Part shown: piece after piece, positions 38,676 through 48,209 of the stretch
Numbering within the stretch: the first letter of the stretch is position 1
Layout of the letters: each line of letters opens with the position of its first letter
Assembly (NCBI GenBank): GCA_965221775.1
Contig: CBDCSU010000004.1
Location: forward strand, 352,001-416,000
DNA length: 64,000 bases
From: Candidatus Latescibacterota bacterium
GTDB lineage: Bacteria > Latescibacterota > UBA2968 > UBA8231
Reading direction: 5' to 3'
The notes under the pieces: model-generated
Seen by the model: the letters and a program-made list of their open reading frames with translations, nothing else
Told to the model about the DNA's origin: nothing
Databases searched by the model: none
Program-made: the position numbers and the translations under genes

Positions 38676-41615
38676 ATGGCAAAGACGGCTGACCACCCCG
38701 GCTCGGCGGGATCCTACGACTTCCAGCGCATCGAGAAGCGCTGGCGCGAGCACTGGATCGCCGAGGGCACGTACCGCACCGCCGGCCCGGGAGAGGAGGG
38801 CTACGACCCGGAGCAGCCGCGGTGCTACATCCTCGACATGTTCCCTTACCCCAGCGGTGAGGGCCTGCACATCGGCCACCCGAAGGGCTACATCGCCTCC
38901 GACATCTACAGCCGCTTCAAACGCATGGCGGGATACAACGTCCTGCATCCCATGGGGTTCGACAGTTTCGGCCTACCCGCCGAGCAGTATGCCATCGAGC
39001 ACAACGTCCATCCCGCCGTCTCCACCGATCAATGCGTCGACCGCATCCGCGCCCAGCTGCAGTACCTGGGCCTCGGCTACGACTGGGACCGGGAGATCTC
39101 CACCTCCCACGAGGACTACTACCGCTGGACCCAATGGATCTTCCTGCAGCTCTTCGACAGCTGGTACGACCCGGAGCTGGCGTGGCGCGACGACTCGGGG
39201 CGGTCCGTCCGCGGGCGGACCCGCCCGATCTCCGAGCTCGTGGATTCCTTCGAGAGGGGAGAGCGGCGGATCACGGACCAGGACCGGCGGTCCCTGCAGG
39301 GACGCCCCGGGGGCGCCGTGGAGGCCGGGTGGCAGGAGCTGTCCGAGGCGCAGCGCCAGGCGGTCCTGAACAACTACCGCATGGCCTACCAGAAGGAGGT
39401 CACCGTCAACTGGTGCCCCGGCCTCGGCACGGTCCTGGCCAACGAGGAGGTCACCGCCGAGGGTTGCAGCGAGATCGGCGACCACCCGGTGTACAGGCGG
39501 CCGCTGAAGCAGTGGATGCTGCGCATCACCGCCTTCGCCGAGCGGCTCCTGGAGGACCTCGATGCGGGGGCCCTGCCCGACGGCCGCGGCGGCACCTTTG
39601 CCCTCAACTGGCCGGAGTCGATCAAGCAGATGCAGCGCAACTGGATCGGCCGCAGCGAGGGCGCCGAGGTCCGCTTCGACGTGCTCGACGCCTCGGGCCG
39701 CGCCCGATCCAGCCTGGAGGTCTTCACCACCCGCCCCGATACCCTCTTCGGAGCCACCTTCATGGTCGTGGCGCCCCAGCATCCCCTGTTGTCGGAGGGC
39801 GACCAGATTCCGGAGGCCTGGCCGGAGGACACGCCTGGCGCCTGGAGGGGGGAGCCGGGAGCCTCCTCGCCCAGGGAAGCCGTGTCCCGCTACGCGGCCC
39901 AGGCGGCTCAATCCGCCTTCTCGGCGGCCGGGCAGGACCAGGAGAAGAGCGGGGTCTTCACGGGGATCTTCGCGCGCCGCCCCATGGACGGGCAGCGCAT
40001 CCCGGTCTTCACCGCCGACTATGTGAGCATGGACTACGGCACCGGAGCGATCATGGCCGTCCCCGCCCACGACGACCGGGACTACGCCTTCGCCCACAAG
40101 TACGGGATCCCGGTCATCGAGGTCGTCGAGCCGCCCCCGGAGGCGGCCGGCACCTCTCCCTATACGGGGGATGGAAGGTCGATCAACTCGCCCGGCGCAG
40201 GGGCCGGCGATCCCGCAAGCGGCAGCCCCTTTTCGATCTCGGGTCTGGCCACGGCCGAGGCGAAATCGCGCATGGTCGGCGCCCTGGAAGCGGCCGGCGT
40301 GGGCCGAAGGGCGGTCACCTGCCGCCTGCGTGACTGGGTGTTCTCGCGCCAGCGCTATTGGGGAGAGCCGTTCCCCCTGGCCACCCATCCCGACGGCTAC
40401 ACGGTGACCACCGGCCTGCCCGTGGTCCTCCCCGAACGAGAGGACTTCCGGCCCAGTACCTCGGATGATCCCGACACCCCGGTCACTCCGCCCCTCGGGC
40501 GGGCGGGCAGGGAGTGGACCCAGGTGGCGGTGGGGGGAACCCTCTGCGACCGCGAGCTCAACGTCATGCCCCAGTGGGCGGGATCGTGCTGGTACTTCCT
40601 GCGCTTCATCGATCCCCACAACGACGGAGCCTTCTGCGATCCGGAGAAGGAGAAGAGCTTCATGCCCGTCGATCTCTACATCGGCGGCGCCGAACACGCG
40701 GTGCTCCACCTGCTCTACGCCAGGTTCTGGCACAAGGCGCTCTTCGATCTGGGGCACGTGAGCTCCCCGGAGCCCTTCAAGAAGCAGTTCAGCCAGGGCA
40801 TGGTCACCGCCGACGCCTTCACCGACGACCGGGGGGTGTACATCGACATCCGCCAGGTCGCTTTCGACGGCGACGGCGAGCCCATCCACGCGCAGACCGG
40901 GCAGCGGCTGTCGAGACAACGGGGGAAGATGGGGAAGCGCTACAAGAACGGACTGCCCCCGGAAGAGGTAGGGGAGGAGTTCGGCGTCGATACCCTGCGG
41001 CTGTACGAGATGTACATGGGGCCCCTGGAGCAGAGCGCCCCGTGGAGCATGGAGGGGATCCGCGGCATGCAGCGGGTCCTGCAGCGGATCTGGAGAAACC
41101 TCGTCGCCCAGGACGGGAGCGCAAAGATCGACGACGGCAACGCCCCGGAGGAACTGCGCAGGCTGCTCCACCGGACCATTCGACGGATCACCGCCGACCT
41201 GGAGGGCCTGCGCTTCAACACCGCCATCGCCGGCCTCATCGAGCTCAACAACGAGTTGGTCTCACTCGAGAGAGTCCCGGTCAAGGTGGCGCGAACGCTC
41301 ATCCTCCTCCTGCATCCACTGGCCCCTCATCTTGCGGAAGAGCTGTGGGAGCGTTGCGGTTTCGGCTCCGGAGATCTCTCCGGCCAACCCTGGCCCGAAT
41401 TCGACGAAGCCCTGACCCGCCGGGAGACGATCCTCCTTCCGGTGCAGGTCAACGGCAAGGTCCGCGCCACGGTCGAGGTACCCGCTTCGACCTCCGAGGA
41501 GGAGGTGAGGGAGCATGTCCTCGGCCTGGACAACATCAAGCGGTACTTGCCCGACTCCGGCGAGATCAAGCGCATGATCCTCGTCCCGGGCAGGATCGTG
41601 AACATCGTAGTCTGA
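38676..41615 (+). CDS. leuS: Leucine--tRNA ligase
   Basis: Motifs DMFPYPSGEGLHIGH, FTTRPDTLFG, YGTGAIMAVPAHD and SRQRYWG. The KMSKS motif reads KMGKR. Confidence 0.96.
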   Translation: MAKTADHPGSAGSYDFQRIEKRWREHWIAEGTYRTAGPGEEGYDPEQPRCYILDMFPYPSGEGLHIGHPKGYIASDIYSRFKRMAGYNVLHPMGFDSFGLPAEQYAIEHNVHPAVSTDQCVDRIRAQLQYLGLGYDWDREISTSHEDYYRWTQWIFLQLFDSWYDPELAWRDDSGRSVRGRTRPISELVDSFERGERRITDQDRRSLQGRPGGAVEAGWQELSEAQRQAVLNNYRMAYQKEVTVNWCPGLGTVLANEEVTAEGCSEIGDHPVYRRPLKQWMLRITAFAERLLEDLDAGALPDGRGGTFALNWPESIKQMQRNWIGRSEGAEVRFDVLDASGRARSSLEVFTTRPDTLFGATFMVVAPQHPLLSEGDQIPEAWPEDTPGAWRGEPGASSPREAVSRYAAQAAQSAFSAAGQDQEKSGVFTGIFARRPMDGQRIPVFTADYVSMDYGTGAIMAVPAHDDRDYAFAHKYGIPVIEVVEPPPEAAGTSPYTGDGRSINSPGAGAGDPASGSPFSISGLATAEAKSRMVGALEAAGVGRRAVTCRLRDWVFSRQRYWGEPFPLATHPDGYTVTTGLPVVLPEREDFRPSTSDDPDTPVTPPLGRAGREWTQVAVGGTLCDRELNVMPQWAGSCWYFLRFIDPHNDGAFCDPEKEKSFMPVDLYIGGAEHAVLHLLYARFWHKALFDLGHVSSPEPFKKQFSQGMVTADAFTDDRGVYIDIRQVAFDGDGEPIHAQTGQRLSRQRGKMGKRYKNGLPPEEVGEEFGVDTLRLYEMYMGPLEQSAPWSMEGIRGMQRVLQRIWRNLVAQDGSAKIDDGNAPEELRRLLHRTIRRITADLEGLRFNTAIAGLIELNNELVSLERVPVKVARTLILLLHPLAPHLAEELWERCGFGSGDLSGQPWPEFDEALTRRETILLPVQVNGKVRATVEVPASTSEEEVREHVLGLDNIKRYLPDSGEIKRMILVPGRIVNIVV

Positions 41616-41666
41616 CGCGGCGAGGCCCCACCCCTGGGACTTCGTGGTGGCAGGCTGCCCAGGAAT

Positions 41667-41694
41667 GGGACACATAAGTAACTTTATGTCTATT
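41667..41694 (+). other. dif-like Xer recombination site A
   Basis: GGGACACATAA-GTAACT-TTATGTCTATT in 11-6-11 form. Each arm matches E. coli dif (GGTGCGCATAA / TTATGTTAAAT) at 8/11 by hand alignment. Confidence 0.65.
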
Positions 41695-41742
41695 TCCGGT
41701 CTCACCTGGGCGCGGAAAGCCCCCCGGCGAACAGGGAAGCCA

Positions 41743-42696
41743 TCACCGGATGTGGATGTAGTCCGAGGCGTTGTCCGTCAGCCGTTCCCGGTTCTCGTAG
41801 TATCGCATGGTGGTCTTGAGATCCTTGTGGCGCAGGTGAGCCTGCACCTGCTGGGGCTTGGCCCCGCCCTCGATCGACAGAGTGCAGCAGGTGTGGCGGA
41901 ACATGTGAGCGGTCACGTTTCGAGTCACGCCGGCACGGCGGGCGTGCTTGCGCACGATGGCGTTGATCGACTGGTCCGAGATCGGTCTTCCGCGGGACCG
42001 GTTGCGGGCCAGGGAGATGAAGGCATGCCCGTCCACCCGAAAGCCCCCGAGCTCGAGGGCCTGACGGTAGAGTGCCAGGTAGTGCAGAACGATGGGCTGC
42101 AGCTTTACGTCCTGAGGAACGCCGGACTTCGTCTCCGTGAGCCGGAGGAGGTGGAAGGCGCCTTCCTCGCTGAAATCCGCCCACTTCACGTTGGCAACTT
42201 CGGAGCGCCGAAGGCCGGCAAAGGTGAGGAGGTGCAGAACCGCCAAGTCCCGTGCCCGGATCAGCGGGTTCTCCTCTTCGGCAACAACATCAACAATGCT
42301 CTGTAATTCATTTCGGGACAGCGCCTTGCCGCTCACCGTCTCGTCCAGGCGATAGCCGCGCACGAGAGAGGCGTCGGCCGGGTTCTTGTCGATCAGGTCC
42401 GTGGCGACCATCATGCGGAAGAAGGCCTTCAGGCTCGCCAGCTTGCGGTTGATCGTCGACCGCCTGCGGCCGCTGGCGGCCAGGGTGTTCCGGAAGTCGA
42501 TGACATCGTCGAAGGTCACTGCGGCCACTCTCTCGGGAGTGACATGGCCGCTGCCGAAAAACTCACGGAGGTCCGCGCCGTAGGCCTTTCGGGTGCGCTC
42601 CGTCAACTGGCCCGCAAGGAAGCGCTCCAGTGGGTCCTCGGAGGCGGATCGTACAGGGTGCGTCGAAAGAGGGGCTGGCGTGGCTTCGGTGCTCAT
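41743..42696 (-). CDS. Tyrosine recombinase (Xer/integrase family)
   Basis: SAM-like N-terminus (TRKAYGADL, STINRKLASLKAFF) and a full catalytic set: GLRRSE (R), TETKSG (K), HMFRH (HxxR), HLRH (H) and TTMRYY (Y). Confidence 0.93.
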   Translation of the reverse strand: MSTEATPAPLSTHPVRSASEDPLERFLAGQLTERTRKAYGADLREFFGSGHVTPERVAAVTFDDVIDFRNTLAASGRRRSTINRKLASLKAFFRMMVATDLIDKNPADASLVRGYRLDETVSGKALSRNELQSIVDVVAEEENPLIRARDLAVLHLLTFAGLRRSEVANVKWADFSEEGAFHLLRLTETKSGVPQDVKLQPIVLHYLALYRQALELGGFRVDGHAFISLARNRSRGRPISDQSINAIVRKHARRAGVTRNVTAHMFRHTCCTLSIEGGAKPQQVQAHLRHKDLKTTMRYYENRERLTDNASDYIHIR

Positions 42697-42786
42697 CGAT
42701 CCAATATACCCAGCGCGCCGGGATCTGTCATTGCCGCGATCTCGCGGCAGCAGGCACGCTTCCTGGGGCCCGATTCGGGCTGTATC

Positions 42787-42818
42787 TAACCAACGATAAT
42801 GACTGTTATCGTTGGTTA
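42787..42818. repeat. Perfect 13-6-13 palindrome, probable cognate site of the adjacent tyrosine recombinase (site B)
   Basis: TAACCAACGATAA-TGACTG-TTATCGTTGGTTA, about 90 bp upstream of the recombinase start codon. Confidence 0.8.
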
Positions 42819-42921
42819 AGGGGCTTCGGCTTCACGGGGCGGCCGGGTCTTTGCCCCGGGGCCTCCTGGATCCCTTTGCTCGCACGCAGGCCAACCCCCT
42901 GGGCCTGGCTTCCAGAGCAGA

Positions 42922-42949
42922 ATGACACATAATCTATATTATCCGCCAT
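42922..42949 (-). other. dif-like Xer recombination site C
   Basis: The plus strand reads ATGACACATAA-TCTATA-TTATCCGCCAT. The reverse complement ATGGCGGATAA-TATAGA-TTATGTGTCAT resembles dif (7/11 and 8/11 arm matches). Confidence 0.6.
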
Positions 42950-42964
42950 GAATGCCGGTTGGAG

Positions 42965-44761
42965 TCATGTCCGGTGGAAGAGTCGATCGAGCTCTTGCAG
43001 AAGGATCTTGATCAGGATCGGCCGGCCGTGAGGACAGGCGAAGGGCTCGCGCGCGTTGAGCAGCTTCCGGACCAGCGTCTCCATCTCCGGGACGGAGAGC
43101 CTCTCGCCGGCGCGGATCGAAGTGTGGCACGCCATCGATGCGGCGACGGCGTCCCGTACCTCCAATCGGACATCCAGCTCCTCGATCAGGTCGGACAGAA
43201 TCTCGTGGAACAGGTCTCCGTCACCCCAGTGACGCAGCCCGGGCGGGATGGCATCGAGCAGCAGGCTCCCGGGACCGAACTCGCGCACGCCGAATCCCAG
43301 TCTCTCGAACAGCTCCCGAGCTTGCAGAAAGGCCTCCATCTCCACCGGGCTGACCGTGACGGTGAGGGGCACCAACAGCTGCTGGGAGGCCCCGCCTTCC
43401 GTTTCGAGGGCGTCCTGCACCTCCTCGAAGCGAACCCGCTCGTGCGCCACGTGCTGATCGACGACGAGGAGCCCGTCGCGGATGGGGATCAGCACGTACT
43501 TGTCGTGTATCTGCCAGGAGACCGTGGAGCGCCGCGCCTCCCCCAGGGTCTTCCTTCCCGCGGCGTCCGCCGGCACCGGCTCTCCGGGGACCGGGGCCGC
43601 GGGCAGCAGGGTCAGTCTCATCTGGTCCGCCGACCCGTCCCACGGCTCTGACTCGGGTTCGGGGAGATAGCCGGTCCGGCTCTCGGCCGGACCCTCGACC
43701 CGGGCCGTCTCCGCCGGCGCCGCCTCTCCGTCCTCACCGGACGGATAGGAGTAGGCCCGGGCCTCGGGGACCTTCAGGGCATCTCGCACCGCCTCCTGCA
43801 CCAGCTGCCGCAACTCCGGCTCCCGCGAAAAGCGCACCTCCCGCTTCGTGGGATGGACGTTGACGTCGAGATGGCGGGGATCGAGGTCCAGCCACAGGAC
43901 GAACTCGGGATGGGCGTTGTGCGGCAGCAGCGAGCCGTACCCGTTGTAGACGGCGGTGGTCAGGGGGCGACAGGCGATGGGACGCTGCCGGACCACGACG
44001 TACTGCCTGGAACGGGCCCGCCCGCACTCTCCCGGAGGCGTCAGGAAGCCCTCGACCCGCGCCTCCGCTCCACCGACCTCCGACTCCCGCTGAAGGGCGA
44101 GGAGCCGGCTGGCCTCGAGGCGGAGCAGTTCTGCCGCTCGCAGGTCTCGCTCCCCCGGAGGCAGGTCGAGGATCTGCCGGCCGCCGTGATCGAGGCGGAA
44201 GGAGACCTCCGGCCGGGCGGCGGCCAGGGCCACGACGGCCTGGGTCACATGCCGCAGCTCCGTGTCCCGGTGGCGCAGGAACTTCCGCCGTGCGGGGGTG
44301 TTGTAGAACAAGCCGCGGACCTCGATGGTGGTCCCCACGTCGCGCCCCGCGGGCAGCAGCTCGCGCTGCACACCGCCCTCGACGACGAGACGCGTGCCCT
44401 CGTCGCCCCCGGCGGGCCGGCTCTCCACCGTCAGCCGGGAGACGGCGGCGATGCTGGCCAGCGCCTCTCCTCGAAACCCCATGGTGGAGATGGTGAAGAG
44501 GTCGGTGGGCGTACGCATCTTGCTGGTGGCATGACGCTCGGTGCAGAGCTCCACGTCCTCCCGCGGCATGCCCAGACCGTTGTCGGCGACGCGGATCGCC
44601 TGCCGGCCCGCCTCTTCGATCTCGATCCCTATACGGCTGGCCCCGGCGTCGAGAGCGTTCTCCACCAGCTCCTTCACCACCGAGGCCGGCCGTTCGATCA
44701 CCTCCCCGGCGGCGATCTTGAGCACGAGGCTCTCGGGCAACCGCTGGATGCTCGCGCCCAT
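42965..44761 (-). CDS. mutL: DNA mismatch repair protein MutL
   Basis: Motifs IAAGEVIERPASVVKELVEN, GFRGEALASI, DQHVAHER and CPHGRP. Confidence 0.96.
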   Translation of the reverse strand: MGASIQRLPESLVLKIAAGEVIERPASVVKELVENALDAGASRIGIEIEEAGRQAIRVADNGLGMPREDVELCTERHATSKMRTPTDLFTISTMGFRGEALASIAAVSRLTVESRPAGGDEGTRLVVEGGVQRELLPAGRDVGTTIEVRGLFYNTPARRKFLRHRDTELRHVTQAVVALAAARPEVSFRLDHGGRQILDLPPGERDLRAAELLRLEASRLLALQRESEVGGAEARVEGFLTPPGECGRARSRQYVVVRQRPIACRPLTTAVYNGYGSLLPHNAHPEFVLWLDLDPRHLDVNVHPTKREVRFSREPELRQLVQEAVRDALKVPEARAYSYPSGEDGEAAPAETARVEGPAESRTGYLPEPESEPWDGSADQMRLTLLPAAPVPGEPVPADAAGRKTLGEARRSTVSWQIHDKYVLIPIRDGLLVVDQHVAHERVRFEEVQDALETEGGASQQLLVPLTVTVSPVEMEAFLQARELFERLGFGVREFGPGSLLLDAIPPGLRHWGDGDLFHEILSDLIEELDVRLEVRDAVAASMACHTSIRAGERLSVPEMETLVRKLLNAREPFACPHGRPILIKILLQELDRLFHRT

Positions 44762-44763
44762 CG

Positions 44764-45342
44764 CTACAGCTCCGGGGCGATCTCGGAGACGCGGCGCTCG
44801 TACTCCTCCTGGGTCAGGCGCCCCTCCTCCAGGTCCTTGCGGGCCCGGGCCAGGCGCTCCCGGGGGCTGCCCACCCGGCGGTGCGTCCGGGCCTGCTGCA
44901 CCAGGTTGTACAGTCCGAAGAGGAGGAGGCCGCCGATGGCGGCCATCCAGGCGGACTCGCGCAACCAGCGTCCCCGGTCGGAGCCCACGGACACGGCCAC
45001 CCCCGAGGCCCGCCACCGGGCGAAGACCTCGATCAGCTCGGACTCATCGGGCATGGGCGCGATGACGTCCTTGGCCAGGGACTGGTGGCCCTCCGCCTCG
45101 ATGACCACGGGTTGGCGCAGGCGGCCGATGAGCCTGCCCTCCACCACCTCGACCCTCTCGACCATCTCCTGGGACACCAGCTCCTCCAGCCGCTCCGGAC
45201 GGATGGCGGTCTCGGAGGGTGCCAGAAGGCTCAGCAGCAGGAGCAGGCTGATCAGCCCCAGGGCCAGGATCAGGGCGAGGGCCGTGGGCGAGGGTTCCGG
45301 GGTCGTCCCCGGGTTCTCCCTGGTCTCGTCATGGGTTGTCAC
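44764..45342 (-). CDS. Two-TM membrane protein with an FtsH-extracellular-like loop and a SHOCT-like tail
   Basis: TM, then ELVSQEMVERVEV, a second TM and a C-terminal EEGRLTQEEYER. GTGA overlap with the upstream gene. Confidence 0.55.
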   Translation of the reverse strand: MTTHDETRENPGTTPEPSPTALALILALGLISLLLLLSLLAPSETAIRPERLEELVSQEMVERVEVVEGRLIGRLRQPVVIEAEGHQSLAKDVIAPMPDESELIEVFARWRASGVAVSVGSDRGRWLRESAWMAAIGGLLLFGLYNLVQQARTHRRVGSPRERLARARKDLEEGRLTQEEYERRVSEIAPEL

Positions 45343-46293: not shown

Positions 46294-47295
46294 TCAAGCC
46301 TTGGCGGGCCTGTTCCCCCCCTCCTTCTCCCCTGCCGCCTGTCTGTTCATCTGCCGAATGAGGCGCTTGTTGAACTCATGGGCCGCGTGGTAGCCGTCGA
46401 TGCGGAGCAGGTAGTTGAAGGCGATCGTCTCGGCGATGACGGTGATGTTCTTTCCGGGGTAGATCGGAACGGTGATCTCCGGGACCTCCACCCCGAGGAT
46501 GTTGAAGGCGCGGTCCTCGATGCCGGTGCGCTCGTAGTCCAGCTCCTCCTCCCAGTCCACGAGGGTGAGGACGATCTCGACTCGTTTCTGGCGGCGGGTC
46601 CCGCCGACGCCGAAGAGCCGCTTCACGTCCACGATGCCGATGCCCCGGATCTCGATGTGGTCCTGCAGCAGCCGCGGCGGACGGCCCATGAGCAGCCCGT
46701 GCGACTGGCGGGTGATGATCACCGTGTCGTCGGCCACGAGCCGGTGTCCGCGCTCGACAAGATCGAGACCGACCTCGCTCTTGCCGATGGCGCTGCGGCC
46801 CATGACCAGCAGGCCCACACCGTGGACATCGACGAGGGTTCCGTGCAGGGTCACCTGCGGAGCGAAGTGATCGTCCAGGTAGAAGTGAAGGAGATGGATG
46901 AACTTGGTGGTGTCGAACTCCGAGCGCAGCAGGGGGATCCCGTACTTGTCGGCGAGGCGGCGCAACTCGGGGAGCAGCCGGCCCCGGCCGGTGACGATCA
47001 CGCAGGGCAGCTCGAACTGGTAGATGATCTCCAGGGCCTGGAGCCGCCGGTCGGGAGGCAGGCTCCGGAGGTACTCCAGTTCGTGGTTGCCGAGGATCTG
47101 CACCAGGTCGAAGGTGAAGACCTCGACGAAGCCGGTGAGGGTCAGTCCGGGCCGATGGACGTCGCTGCTGTTGATGGAGCGGCCCATTCCCCCCTCCCCT
47201 GCCAGCAGACGCAGACCGAGACGGCGGCCATACTCCTTGAGCAGAGTCTCGATCTCCATCCGCGCCTCGCTCTGGCTGTTCGTGGTGGTGCTCAT
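46294..47295 (-). CDS. hprK: HPr kinase/phosphorylase
   Basis: Motifs HRPGLTLTGF, GRSAIGKSE..LDLVERGHRLVADD and IEIRGIGI. Confidence 0.95.
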   Translation of the reverse strand: MSTTTNSQSEARMEIETLLKEYGRRLGLRLLAGEGGMGRSINSSDVHRPGLTLTGFVEVFTFDLVQILGNHELEYLRSLPPDRRLQALEIIYQFELPCVIVTGRGRLLPELRRLADKYGIPLLRSEFDTTKFIHLLHFYLDDHFAPQVTLHGTLVDVHGVGLLVMGRSAIGKSEVGLDLVERGHRLVADDTVIITRQSHGLLMGRPPRLLQDHIEIRGIGIVDVKRLFGVGGTRRQKRVEIVLTLVDWEEELDYERTGIEDRAFNILGVEVPEITVPIYPGKNITVIAETIAFNYLLRIDGYHAAHEFNKRLIRQMNRQAAGEKEGGNRPAKA

Positions 47296-48209
47296 CCCGC
47301 TCCCTCCCTGGCCACGGCGTCGCCGTGGGCCCGCCTGAAGCCCTCGTAGCGGCTGCCGGAGATCTGTCCCCGCTCCACCGCCTCGCGGATGGCGCATCCC
47401 GGCTCGTGGATGTGCGTACAGTCGCGGAACCGGCATCCGCCGGCCAGGGGCTTCATCTCCCGGTAGTACTCCACCAGGTCCGACGCTCCCACTCCCCACG
47501 GCTGGAGCTGCTTGAGGCCGGGCGTGTCGACCACGTAGCCGCCCCCGCGCAGCCGGTGCAGGGAGGCCGCCGTCGTCGTGTGGCGCCCGCGGTCGTGATG
47601 GCGCATCAGCCCCTGCGTCTTCAGGCCGAGCCCCGGCTCGAGGCGGTTGAGGATCGCCGACTTGCCCACCCCGGAGGGGCCGACCAGGACCGAGACGCCC
47701 TCGCGGAAGGACTCGGCCAGGGACTCCATCCCGGCCCCCGTGGCGGCGCTGGTCTCGACCACCCGGTAGGCGAGGTTCCGGTACAGGTCCACCAGGGGCC
47801 GGCGGCTGTCTGCGTCGTCGAGGTCGATCTTGTTGACGCAGAGGATGGTCTCCTCGATGCCGCCGCTGGCGGCCATGACCAGGGCGCGGTCGATGAACCC
47901 CGTGCTCGGCGCCGGATCGAGGGCCGCGCAGACCACGAAGAAGCGGTCGAGGTTGGAGGCGATGACCTGCCGGGTCGGCCGCCCGCCGGTGGCCATGCGG
48001 GCGAGGTTCGACGTCCGCGGCAGGACCGACTCGATCACCCCCCGGCCGGCTTCGGTGCGGCTCACGCGGACCAGGTCTCCCGCCACCACCGGGGAGCGGT
48101 CCTCCCGGCGCCCGGCCTTCAGTCCTCCCCGGAGCTGACAGAGGATCTCCCCCCCGTCGAGGCCGACGAGGACCTCCCAACCGGAGACGCGCAGGGCCCG
48201 GCCGCGCAA
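47292..48209 (-). CDS. rsgA: Ribosome small subunit-dependent GTPase A
   Basis: Motifs NKIDL, GPSGVGKS, GRHTTT, DTPG and CRFRDCTHIHEPGC. The start is uncertain; TTG at 48209 was assumed. Confidence 0.93.
   Translation of the reverse strand: MRGRALRVSGWEVLVGLDGGEILCQLRGGLKAGRREDRSPVVAGDLVRVSRTEAGRGVIESVLPRTSNLARMATGGRPTRQVIASNLDRFFVVCAALDPAPSTGFIDRALVMAASGGIEETILCVNKIDLDDADSRRPLVDLYRNLAYRVVETSAATGAGMESLAESFREGVSVLVGPSGVGKSAILNRLEPGLGLKTQGLMRHHDRGRHTTTAASLHRLRGGGYVVDTPGLKQLQPWGVGASDLVEYYREMKPLAGGCRFRDCTHIHEPGCAIREAVERGQISGSRYEGFRRAHGDAVAREGAG

Follow-up and report, generated by a model that had tools for sequence, protein, structure and literature searches.

What does a lone recombinase gene do when it sits, together with three Xer-type sites, between two converging runs of housekeeping genes? 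This arrangement is found in a window of 64 kb (the whole stretch of DNA analysed here, 64,000 nucleotides) from the genome under study (G000, 5.36 Mb, 70% G+C), in which the gene of a 317-aa tyrosine recombinase, hereafter REC, is accompanied by the sites A, B and C. The preliminary description of this stretch left two readings side by side: a lineage-specific locus for the resolution of chromosome dimers, or a cargo-free module that moves by means of the host XerCD.

The borders of the locus are clear. On one side, leuS (979 aa, 38676..41615, plus strand; Pfam tRNA-synt_1_2, tRNA-synt_1 and Anticodon_1) is the final gene of a PNPase-AsxRS-LeuS run that converges on REC and whose synteny is retained in relatives; on the other, mutL (683 aa, 42965..45016, minus strand; Pfam MutL_C, DNA_mis_repair and HATPase_c_3) is the first gene of the run converging from the opposite direction. 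The sole long open reading frame with a family match between them is REC (41743..42696, minus strand), an Xer-like protein composed of a Phage_integrase domain (E 1.5e-23) and a SAM-like N domain, and the earlier account of a single intact tyrosine recombinase between convergent leuS and mutL is thus borne out. Its catalytic set is complete (R163, K190, H264, R267, H290 and Y299) and invariant in 17/17 aligned orthologues, and its C-terminal tail, RYYENRERLTDNASDYI, is conserved. A promoter-like pair, ATGACA-17-TATATT, precedes the gene (42703..42731, minus strand; 1 found against 0.2 expected), and relatives show comparable ATGACA ... TATATT boxes ahead of REC. Since only 6 bases separate the end of the -10 box from the ATG, the REC mRNA would be leaderless or nearly so.

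The motif ATAA-N6-TTAT occurs three times in the window, always at the REC locus, against 0.01 occurrences expected from 100 shuffles; there are six in the whole genome, half of them here. The preliminary description had reported these three sites, and all of them are read at the same positions. Site A (41667..41694; GGGACACATAA GTAACT TTATGTCTATT) lies 48 bp beyond the REC stop codon and has an 11-6-11 structure with two ACATAA-type arms. Site C (42922..42949; ATGACACATAA TCTATA TTATCCGCCAT) is separated from the mutL stop codon by 15 bp and, on the minus strand, shows an XerD-like arm, TTATGTGTCAT, and an XerC-like arm, ATGGCGGATAA. Both have a TTATGT-type arm, in agreement with their description as dif-like sites of XerCD type. 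Site B (42787..42818) has a 13-6-13 structure in which the arms TAACCAACGATAA and TTATCGTTGGTTA surround the centre TGACTG. It had been called a perfect palindrome; this holds for the 13-bp arms, which when extended match at 13 of 14 positions, but not for the 6-bp centre, which is asymmetric. B is found 56 bp upstream of the REC -35 box and 90 bp from the start codon.

The position of the locus on the chromosome is informative. GC skew alone gives just a broad plateau on contig C4, from 150 to 450 kb, with its cumulative maximum at 410 kb (10-kb resolution), so that a test based on octamers was needed. Ten strand-skewed octamers were picked from contig C6 alone, taking dnaA as the origin, and on C4 their cumulative skew reaches its maximum at C4:392,981. 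This corresponds to position 40,981 of the window, some 0.7 kb away from site A. In all 19 relatives assembled as a single contig (4.2-7.3 Mb), REC is found at 0.467-0.498 of the circle from dnaA. The REC locus is the replication terminus, as the first of the two readings would have it. An FtsK with a gamma domain is also encoded in G000, at C6:1479429.

REC is present in G000 and in 59 of the 75 other genomes of its family (f1), and it was found in none of the 92 genomes that represent 13 further families of the phylum. Of 18 relatives retrieved, 12 keep the order leuS-REC-mutL, three have the locus interrupted by a contig end and three are variants; REC is inverted in G019. Apart from such local rearrangements, the gene is confined to the terminus slot among the 60 genomes. 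The divergence of REC equals that of LeuS (88 vs 92%, 62 vs 62% and 60 vs 61% identity), which argues against recent transfer. Judging from this congruence, REC is vertically inherited in one family of uncultured bacteria labelled as Latescibacterota or Gemmatimonadota.

The three sites do not follow REC to the same extent. Site B was recognized upstream of the gene in about 49 of 55 full-length loci: 36 have a strict 14-6-14 palindrome, 10 have 4-5 mismatches in the arms and three have a TTCT core. It was not found there in four loci (L040, L072, L088 and L090), one is ambiguous (L084) and one has too little upstream sequence (L031). Both arms retain ACTA and ATAA in 45/45 sites, and they accumulated 27 symmetric double changes where 14.3 were expected, a comparison in which the related genomes are not independent samples. 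With respect to REC, the centre points either way (CAGGCA in 18 cases, TGCCTG in 5), which is tolerable for a site with symmetric arms. In comparison, an A-type site follows REC at a distance of up to 300 bp in 20 of the 55 loci and a C-type site in 7 by a strict rule, with four more weak cases (7-11/55); in the largest genus, B is alone in the spacer between mutL and REC. Thus, whereas the preliminary description gave the main role to A and C, it is B that travels with REC. Among 40 listed strain differences, five fall in A and none in B or C, which makes A the site with the weakest constraint among strains. B could also be a regulatory site. Its role as a classical promoter-overlapping operator is unsupported, given its distance from the -35 box.

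The history of the canonical recombinases in the same family points in a similar direction. The XerC orthologue has no nucleophile tyrosine in 17 of 23 f1 genomes, whereas this residue is present in 6/6 outgroup genomes; in G000 the protein has lost Y, H and K and, by these residues, is catalytically dead. The situation of XerD is less clear-cut; in G000 the XerD-like gene lies at C5:204037-205017. The tyrosine, both arginines and the second His are retained in 30/30 genomes, and so XerD may still work. Its catalytic Lys, in contrast to 8/8 outgroup genomes, is kept in just 4 of 22 f1 genomes (lost in 18), and its first His in 8 of 22 (lost in 14) against 8/8 in the outgroup, calls that are alignment-dependent for both residues. 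Since G019 and G022 have both REC and an apparently intact XerC, the two systems seem to coexist in places.

Several scenarios may explain these observations. The one that we favor, with a probability of roughly 0.6, is that REC and site B constitute a lineage-specific, single-recombinase system for dimer resolution at the terminus, which would be displacing the decaying XerC/XerD. The corresponding reading of the preliminary description is strongly supported as regards position and inheritance, with the terminus at this place, a clade-specific and vertically transmitted gene, a conserved adjacent site and the decay of XerC in the same clade. The palindrome B, with its long arms and its position immediately before the REC promoter, would be the partner of REC, and two REC monomers would occupy its two identical arms. 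Once a dimer had arisen from sister chromosomes by homologous recombination, two B sites would synapse at the septum, probably with the help of the genome-encoded FtsK translocase, and four REC subunits would exchange strands across the 6-bp centre to give back two monomers. In this scenario REC would bind and recombine B alone and under the control of FtsK, just as one enzyme suffices in XerS/difSL, XerH/difH and XerL/dif. A and C would then be dif sites of XerC/XerD type, left over from the ancestral two-enzyme system or weakly used by it.

Additional information comes from the members of the family that lack REC. Four of these genomes (G006 and 3/3 genomes of the genus g22) carry in the same slot a Cre-like recombinase with its own palindrome, at about 47% of the circle from dnaA in g22. 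In G006, XerC is decayed and REC is nowhere in the closed genome; its slot contains a Cre-family protein that matches Cre chains over nearly the full length (E 2e-19), is 23% identical to REC and is 71% identical to a G000 gene located beside a P4-type integrase. The palindrome next to it (14-6-14, with 12/14 positions matching) also has an ATAA-N6-TTAT core. That the slot has hosted two unrelated recombinases, both accompanied by a palindrome of their own, is more easily reconciled with an enzyme that works by itself than with one that pairs with XerD. With REC replaced in G006 and g22, the slot does act as a cassette site over evolutionary time. The G006 protein resembles the Cre/loxP system of phage P1 in this near-full-length match and in the inverted-repeat site by the gene, but the G006/g22 version is chromosomal and lies at the terminus, between leuS and mutL. 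Cre resolves dimers of the P1 plasmid, and the G006 site has an ATAA-N6-TTAT core instead of being a loxP.

A broader model, which we regard as tentative and would put forward as an open possibility rather than as an expectation, is that the dimer-resolution systems of this family are swappable cassettes, each made up of a recombinase and a palindrome, that occupy a fixed terminus slot beside the old dif. It would imply at least one exchange between REC and the Cre-family enzyme, probably through Xer-type integration at dif, and a decay of XerC/XerD in stages. If it were true, a Cre-family protein would be acting as a chromosomal dimer resolvase, and the replacement of XerCD would have been caught midway, with XerC intact, half-decayed and dead in sister genera.

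Alternatively, REC could have replaced XerC alone. In that case, it would form a heterotetramer with the surviving XerD on C (or A), which would be the true dif, and B would be an accessory or autoregulatory binding site of REC. This is conceivable, yet rather unlikely. The tyrosine, the two arginines and the second His of XerD did persist in 30/30 genomes while the tyrosine of XerC disappeared from 17 of 23, and site C has the canonical layout of one XerC arm and one XerD arm. Moreover, A and C bear the TTATGT(A/G) arms typical of XerD sites, and C has a counterpart at the same place in G006 with 16/22 arm positions in common and an identical TCTATA centre; together with the lack of changes in C among the listed strain differences, this suggests that C is constrained too. 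Nevertheless, C-type and A-type sites are much rarer than B beside this gene, and in the mutL-REC spacer of the largest genus B stands alone. The half-sites of B differ in sequence from the XerC-type arms found in A and C, XerD itself has lost its Lys in 18 and its first His in 14 of the 22 family genomes, and the Cre-family enzyme that occupies the slot in G006 and g22, so distant from REC, would probably not associate with XerD in the way supposed for REC.

The second reading of the preliminary description, a 1.3-kb unit similar to IMEX or pdif elements, bounded by A and C, that moves or inverts by Xer recombination and brings its own recombinase, appears improbable for the present-day locus. 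Xer-type sites do flank REC on both sides, and another cassette has come to occupy the slot in G006 and g22; in G006 two sites, the dif-like s308 and s1448 on the mutL side, form, weakly, direct repeats around this cassette (15 vs 13 of 22), whose recombinase has the close G000 relative beside a P4-type integrase mentioned above. The inversion of REC in G019 and the fact that its nearest relatives are outside the sampled genomes of the phylum could also be explained in this manner. As in the IMEX and the pdif/dif modules of Acinetobacter, a short unit is flanked by Xer-type sites at or near dif and the slot is re-used. Those elements, however, depend on the host XerCD, carry cargo and occur in varied contexts, while the REC unit has its own recombinase as sole gene, no cargo and one slot family-wide, and diverges with its host at the rate of LeuS; an IMEX would furthermore need the XerCD of a host whose XerC is dead in G000. 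The preliminary description read A and C as the inverted C|D ... D|C layout of a pdif module; in G000 their arms agree at 14/22 positions in the direct and inverted readings alike. The two nearest relatives favor the direct reading (16 vs 10 in G007, 14 vs 8 in G002), and four distant relatives or loci the inverted one (G019, L069, L085 and G023). The two centres have 1/6 bases in common in G000, which makes a full Xer exchange between them unlikely.

No trace of present-day movement turned up. No homologue above about 31% identity was found in plasmid and phage records, and among the contigs of four metagenome runs there is none in which the cassette is skipped or inverted, a weak argument because contigs drop rare variants. 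A joint of one run that skips 103 bases (42851-42955) and a 29-base insertion of another (42955/6) correspond to strain differences in the spacer between C and mutL. An empty allele of the leuS-mutL junction, which the preliminary description had proposed to look for, was found in none of the genomes surveyed (G006, G003, G012, G020 and G021; the outgroups G025, G029, G030 and G040; G138-G140 and G144). The readable REC-less genomes hold the Cre-like cassette instead (G006 and g22), the contig of G012 stops just past a C-type site and the locus is uninformative in G021 and G144. No mutL match was obtained in G003, G020, G024 and G149, all multi-contig draft assemblies, and the four outgroup genomes have neither a leuS-mutL junction nor such a site beside mutL.

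It is still less probable that REC is a domesticated integrase, an invertase or the partner of another element, with B as the attachment site of a mobile element and XerC/XerD resolving dimers at C. The genome of G000 does contain one further B-like palindrome, and just one (TGAACCCCCGATAA GGGACA TTATCGCTGGTTCA, at C6:2410189), with two integrase genes about 40 kb off and seven ORFs devoid of Pfam matches in its neighbourhood. Yet the XerC that would have to resolve the dimers is dead in G000, B and REC have kept their place at the terminus in 15 or more genera, and no invertible segment with a B site at either end was seen. Finally, the notion that REC is a plain, vertically inherited xerC or xerD, with dif elsewhere and three incidental sites, can be dismissed, because REC, in spite of having XerC and XerD as its best NCBIfam matches, remains far under their cut-offs (116 bits against 335 and 114 against 330; XerA, 103 against 220), falls outside the XerC+XerD clade of the phylum in a quick tree, coexists in G000 with separate XerC and XerD orthologues and is surrounded, at the terminus, by half of the ATAA-N6-TTAT sites of the genome.

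The favored reading, a single-recombinase system made up of REC and B, has counterparts in other lineages. In streptococci and lactococci, XerS is encoded beside its terminus site, difSL, and this pair is regarded as a module that displaced XerCD (PMC5357621, PMC1914069). The Xer-like gene adjoining its site at the terminus is a common trait with REC, which nevertheless reaches just 63 bits with the XerS model (cut-off 267) and belongs to another phylum, in a lineage that still has XerC/XerD orthologues and XerCD-type sites. The centre of difSL is 11 bp long and its arms are unequal (PMC5357621), in contrast to the 6-bp centre and the perfect 13-bp arms of B. XerH of Helicobacter and Campylobacter is likewise a single recombinase next to its site, difH, near the terminus (PMC5357621, PMC9765430). 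The match of REC to the XerH chain 5jjv is limited to the catalytic domain (E 8e-5), which indicates that they are not orthologues. The sequences of difH and of the sites at the REC locus are not known to be related. In Legionellales, XerL is described as a single recombinase whose dif has arms formed by long uninterrupted inverted repeats of 10 and 12 bp (PMC9765430); the proposed REC/B pair, with the long inverted-repeat arms of B, resembles it in organisation. As for the canonical XerC/XerD-dif system, A and C resemble it in their 11-6-11 ATAA-N6-TTAT structure, TTATGT arm, terminus position and the FtsK gamma domain, but REC is neither XerC nor XerD and the true XerC of G000 has lost its Y, H and K.

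Only four single-recombinase systems for dimer resolution are described in the portion of the literature reviewed (XerS, XerH, the archaeal XerA and XerL), and REC/B would be a candidate fifth, in one family of sponge- and marine-associated uncultured bacteria. In the lineages of the former four, the old system is already gone or unrecognisable, which hides the route by which XerCD was displaced. In family f1, old XerCD-type sites are still found beside REC, XerC ranges from intact to dead across genera and a Cre-like enzyme takes the place of REC in four genomes, a natural series for how an essential genome-maintenance system gets replaced. With an enzyme of 317 aa and a site of 32 bp, the system is compact enough that its parts could also be tried as a new tool for site-specific recombination.

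Beyond the family, the relatives with which REC groups in the quick tree are metagenomic. Among the metagenome loci with at least 250 bp upstream of the gene, 7 of 61 have a B-type site; since six of these seven have leuS or mutL as neighbours, they correspond to orthologues from the family, and the seventh (L218) is 1.3 kb long, too short to show its neighbours. Neither leuS/mutL neighbours nor a B-type palindrome were found for the metagenomic relatives at 40-50% identity. One subgroup of the metagenomic relatives has a different conserved inverted repeat, located downstream of the gene.

REC, a tyrosine recombinase of 317 amino acids (41743-42696, minus strand), is encoded in a draft genome of 5.36 Mb and 70% G+C made up of six contigs. 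It is the sole gene between a plus-strand run of PNPase, Asp/Asn-tRNA ligase and leuS and a minus-strand run that includes mutL and, beyond it, a homologue of HPr kinase; the gene content of the window thus bears out the solitary position between converging runs reported in the preliminary description. The HPr kinase homologue (46294-48180, minus strand, 628 amino acids) has its first Pfam domain only from residue 311, its long N-terminal part being without any Pfam match. Read directly, the sequence also holds the three sites where that description had placed them: site A at 41667-41694 (GGGACACATAA GTAACT TTATGTCTATT), site B at 42787-42818 (centre TGACTG flanked by perfect 13-bp arms) and site C at 42922-42949 (ATGACACATAA TCTATA TTATCCGCCAT). 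Their ATAA-N6-TTAT core occurs three times in the window, always at this locus, against 0.01 expected, and in six places genome-wide. REC has a sigma-70-like promoter (ATGACA-17-TATATT, 42703-42731, minus strand) whose -35 box lies 56 bp from site B, with B on the upstream side. Since just 6 bases separate the -10 box from the ATG, the mRNA probably has no leader. Comparable promoter boxes are visible in relatives.

The REC locus is the replication terminus. The origin was set at dnaA (contig C6, 1,805,950) and the ten octamers most biased towards the leading strand were picked on C6 alone, then applied to the other contigs. On contig C4, which carries the window, their cumulative strand difference has a single maximum at 392,981 (window 40,981) and falls afterwards, with a density of one event per ~550 bp. 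The preliminary description had proposed cumulative GC skew and KOPS polarity as a check; the octamers put the switch ~0.7 kb from site A, and plain GC skew on C4 gives no more than a plateau that is highest at 410 kb. With the switch at the octamer maximum, the replichores measure ~2.59 and ~2.69 Mb (summed contig arms). REC lies at 0.467-0.498 of the circle from dnaA in 19/19 single-contig relatives (4.2-7.3 Mb); as these are kin, the nominal probability of the agreement is too strong a figure, but the position is kept over a 1.7-fold range of genome sizes.

Among 168 genomes of the phylum, REC (called at E <= 1e-35) is present in the source genome and in 59 of the 75 other genomes of its family, f1, and in none of the 92 genomes from 13 other families. 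The order leuS-REC-mutL is that of the window in 12 of 18 relatives; three loci are cut by contig ends and three are variants, with a 3.9-kb insertion (G016), REC inverted and leuS gone (G019) or no mutL found (G015). The identities of REC and LeuS to those of the source genome run parallel (88/92, 70/68, 62/62 and 60/61%), and the six catalytic residues and the C-terminal tail of REC are invariant in 17 orthologues. The plasmid and phage records searched contained no homologue above ~31% identity. Present in most genomes of its family, in the same slot, as divergent as LeuS and without closer relatives in those records, REC did not arrive recently. Eight genomes of the largest genus (L055, L058, L059, L064, L067, L071, L077 and L095) have the mutL-B-REC block inverted in place, giving the order leuS, mutL, B, REC, HPr kinase gene; these loci are still opposite dnaA wherever measurable.

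The sites accompanying REC were surveyed in 55 distinct full-length loci. Under a strict rule (14-6-14 palindrome, at most three arm mismatches, within 1 kb upstream of REC), B-type palindromes are found in 36/55; ten further loci have a B sequence with 4-5 mismatches and three one with a TTCT core. No B-type palindrome was found upstream of REC in four, one locus is ambiguous and one lacks upstream sequence. ACTA and ATAA are present in both arms of 45 B sites without exception, and the arms have 27 symmetric double changes where 14.3 would be expected. Relative to REC, the asymmetric 6-bp centre can face either way (mostly CAGGCA, in 18; flipped TGCCTG in 5; CAGTCA in the source genome versus TGACTG in L085), which suggests that the spacer was repeatedly flipped between the inverted arms. 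A-type sites (XerD-like arm, at least 8/10 positions) lie downstream of REC in 20/55 loci, three of them register-shifted, and C-type sites in seven plus four weaker ones, the source genome among the latter. The mutL-REC spacer of the largest genus has B and no other site. The layout of A and C, put forward as inverted in the preliminary description, reads as inverted in G019, L069, L085 and G023, as direct in G007 and G002, and is tied in the source genome (14/22 either way). The window stretch is present in sponge and marine metagenome runs from seven studies. Among 40 listed strain differences in three other runs, beyond which there are 13 more, five lie within A; B and C are free of any. 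In other samples the spacers at 41650-41740 and 42820-42960 show many substitutions and small indels among strains, among them 29 bases inserted between C and the stop codon of mutL. Elsewhere in the genome there is a single further 14-6-14 palindrome with a TAA-N6-TTA core (C6:2410189-2410222; L023:5190-5223); it is B-like (GAACC..CGATAA arms) and lies among ORFs without Pfam match, with a P4-type integrase and a Cre-like gene ~40 kb away.

The source genome has seven integrase-family genes, including orthologues of XerD (C5:204037-205017; L021:1001-1981; 290 bits, above the PRK00283 cut-off) and XerC (C6:352306-353271; L022:1001-1966; 149 bits). In alignments, XerC keeps K, HxxR, H and Y in 6/6 outgroup genomes; in f1 the tyrosine at the nucleophile position is missing in 17/23, and in genus g1 the histidines are also gone in every member. 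By the same alignments, XerC looks intact in G012, G019, G021, G022 and G024 and half-way in G017. In the source genome, XerC no longer has the catalytic Lys, either His or the Tyr; its ORF is still intact, four close relatives have it at 83-94% identity, and the protein may persist without catalytic activity. XerD retains Y, the second Arg and H2 in 30/30 aligned genomes; its Lys is kept in 4/22 f1 genomes versus 8/8 of the outgroup, and its first His in 8/22 versus 8/8 (alignment-based). The source genome's XerD has Tyr, both Arg and the second His, with Lys changed to Arg and the first His to Gln, as throughout its genus; outgroup XerD has Lys and His at these two positions, and genus g22 shares the f1 pattern. 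Judging by these residues, the old XerC/XerD system is decaying in f1.

REC was searched for and is absent in G006, a closed genome from the source organism's genus in which XerC is decayed. Its leuS-mutL slot encodes, on the strand opposite to REC's, a 319-aa recombinase (L043:426-1385) that matches Cre chains (E 2e-19) and is 23% identical to REC. At 35 bp upstream of the start of this gene there is a palindrome (12 of 14, ATAA-N6-TTAT core), and the slot also has three dif-like sites, one with the same centre as site C and 16/22 arm positions shared. Orthologues (58-64% identical) occupy this slot in 3/3 genomes of g22 (L292, L293 and L294, from G138, G140 and G139), at ~47% of the circle from dnaA in two of them. 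In four genomes without REC, the terminus slot is thus filled by a Cre-family recombinase beside an inverted-repeat site of its own. The G006 recombinase shares 71% identity with a gene of the source genome (C6:2369962) that adjoins a P4-type integrase.

From the position of REC, its inheritance, the pairing of gene and site, the way XerC has decayed and the presence, in some genomes, of an unrelated recombinase and its palindrome in place of REC, we favor, with a probability of about 60%, the reading that REC and its site form a XerS/XerH-type module in which a single recombinase resolves dimers and which displaced XerCD. The likeness to those systems would lie in this organization, dimers being resolved by REC alone at its own site in place of XerCD. 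The lineage-specific dimer resolution locus of the preliminary description fits the terminus position, inheritance and gene-site pairing, its function being predicted from sequence. The main rival, that REC pairs with XerD on site C or A, is consistent with the retained XerD tyrosine and the constraint on site C, but we consider it unlikely. It is highly improbable that the REC unit, found family-wide in one slot, is a currently mobile pdif/IMEX-like module. Literature searches on tyrosine recombinases of Latescibacter, on Cre-like enzymes with chromosome dimers and dif, and on XerC and dif of gemmatimonads brought up no account of a REC-type system.

REC scores far under all NCBIfam cut-offs (XerC 116, XerD 114, XerA 103 and XerS 63 bits), and its closest solved chains, with weak E-values, are XerA-like 4a8e, Tn1549 Int, XerD and XerH. 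A library of 1.84 billion proteins holds 59 clusters of relatives (E <= 1e-30) along a gradient of 54-35% identity, which are marine metagenome proteins with generic names or none. In a quick tree, the 12 REC rows (support 95) are nested among metagenomic relatives (96) and apart from the XerC+XerD clade of the phylum (96), which gives the XerC/XerD part of the placement asked for in the preliminary description. Metagenome relatives ~48% identical to REC (L208-L215) have no leuS or mutL neighbours; a different inverted repeat (9-6-9) is conserved 26 bp downstream of their stop codon and is followed by a hairpin whose stem has compensatory changes.
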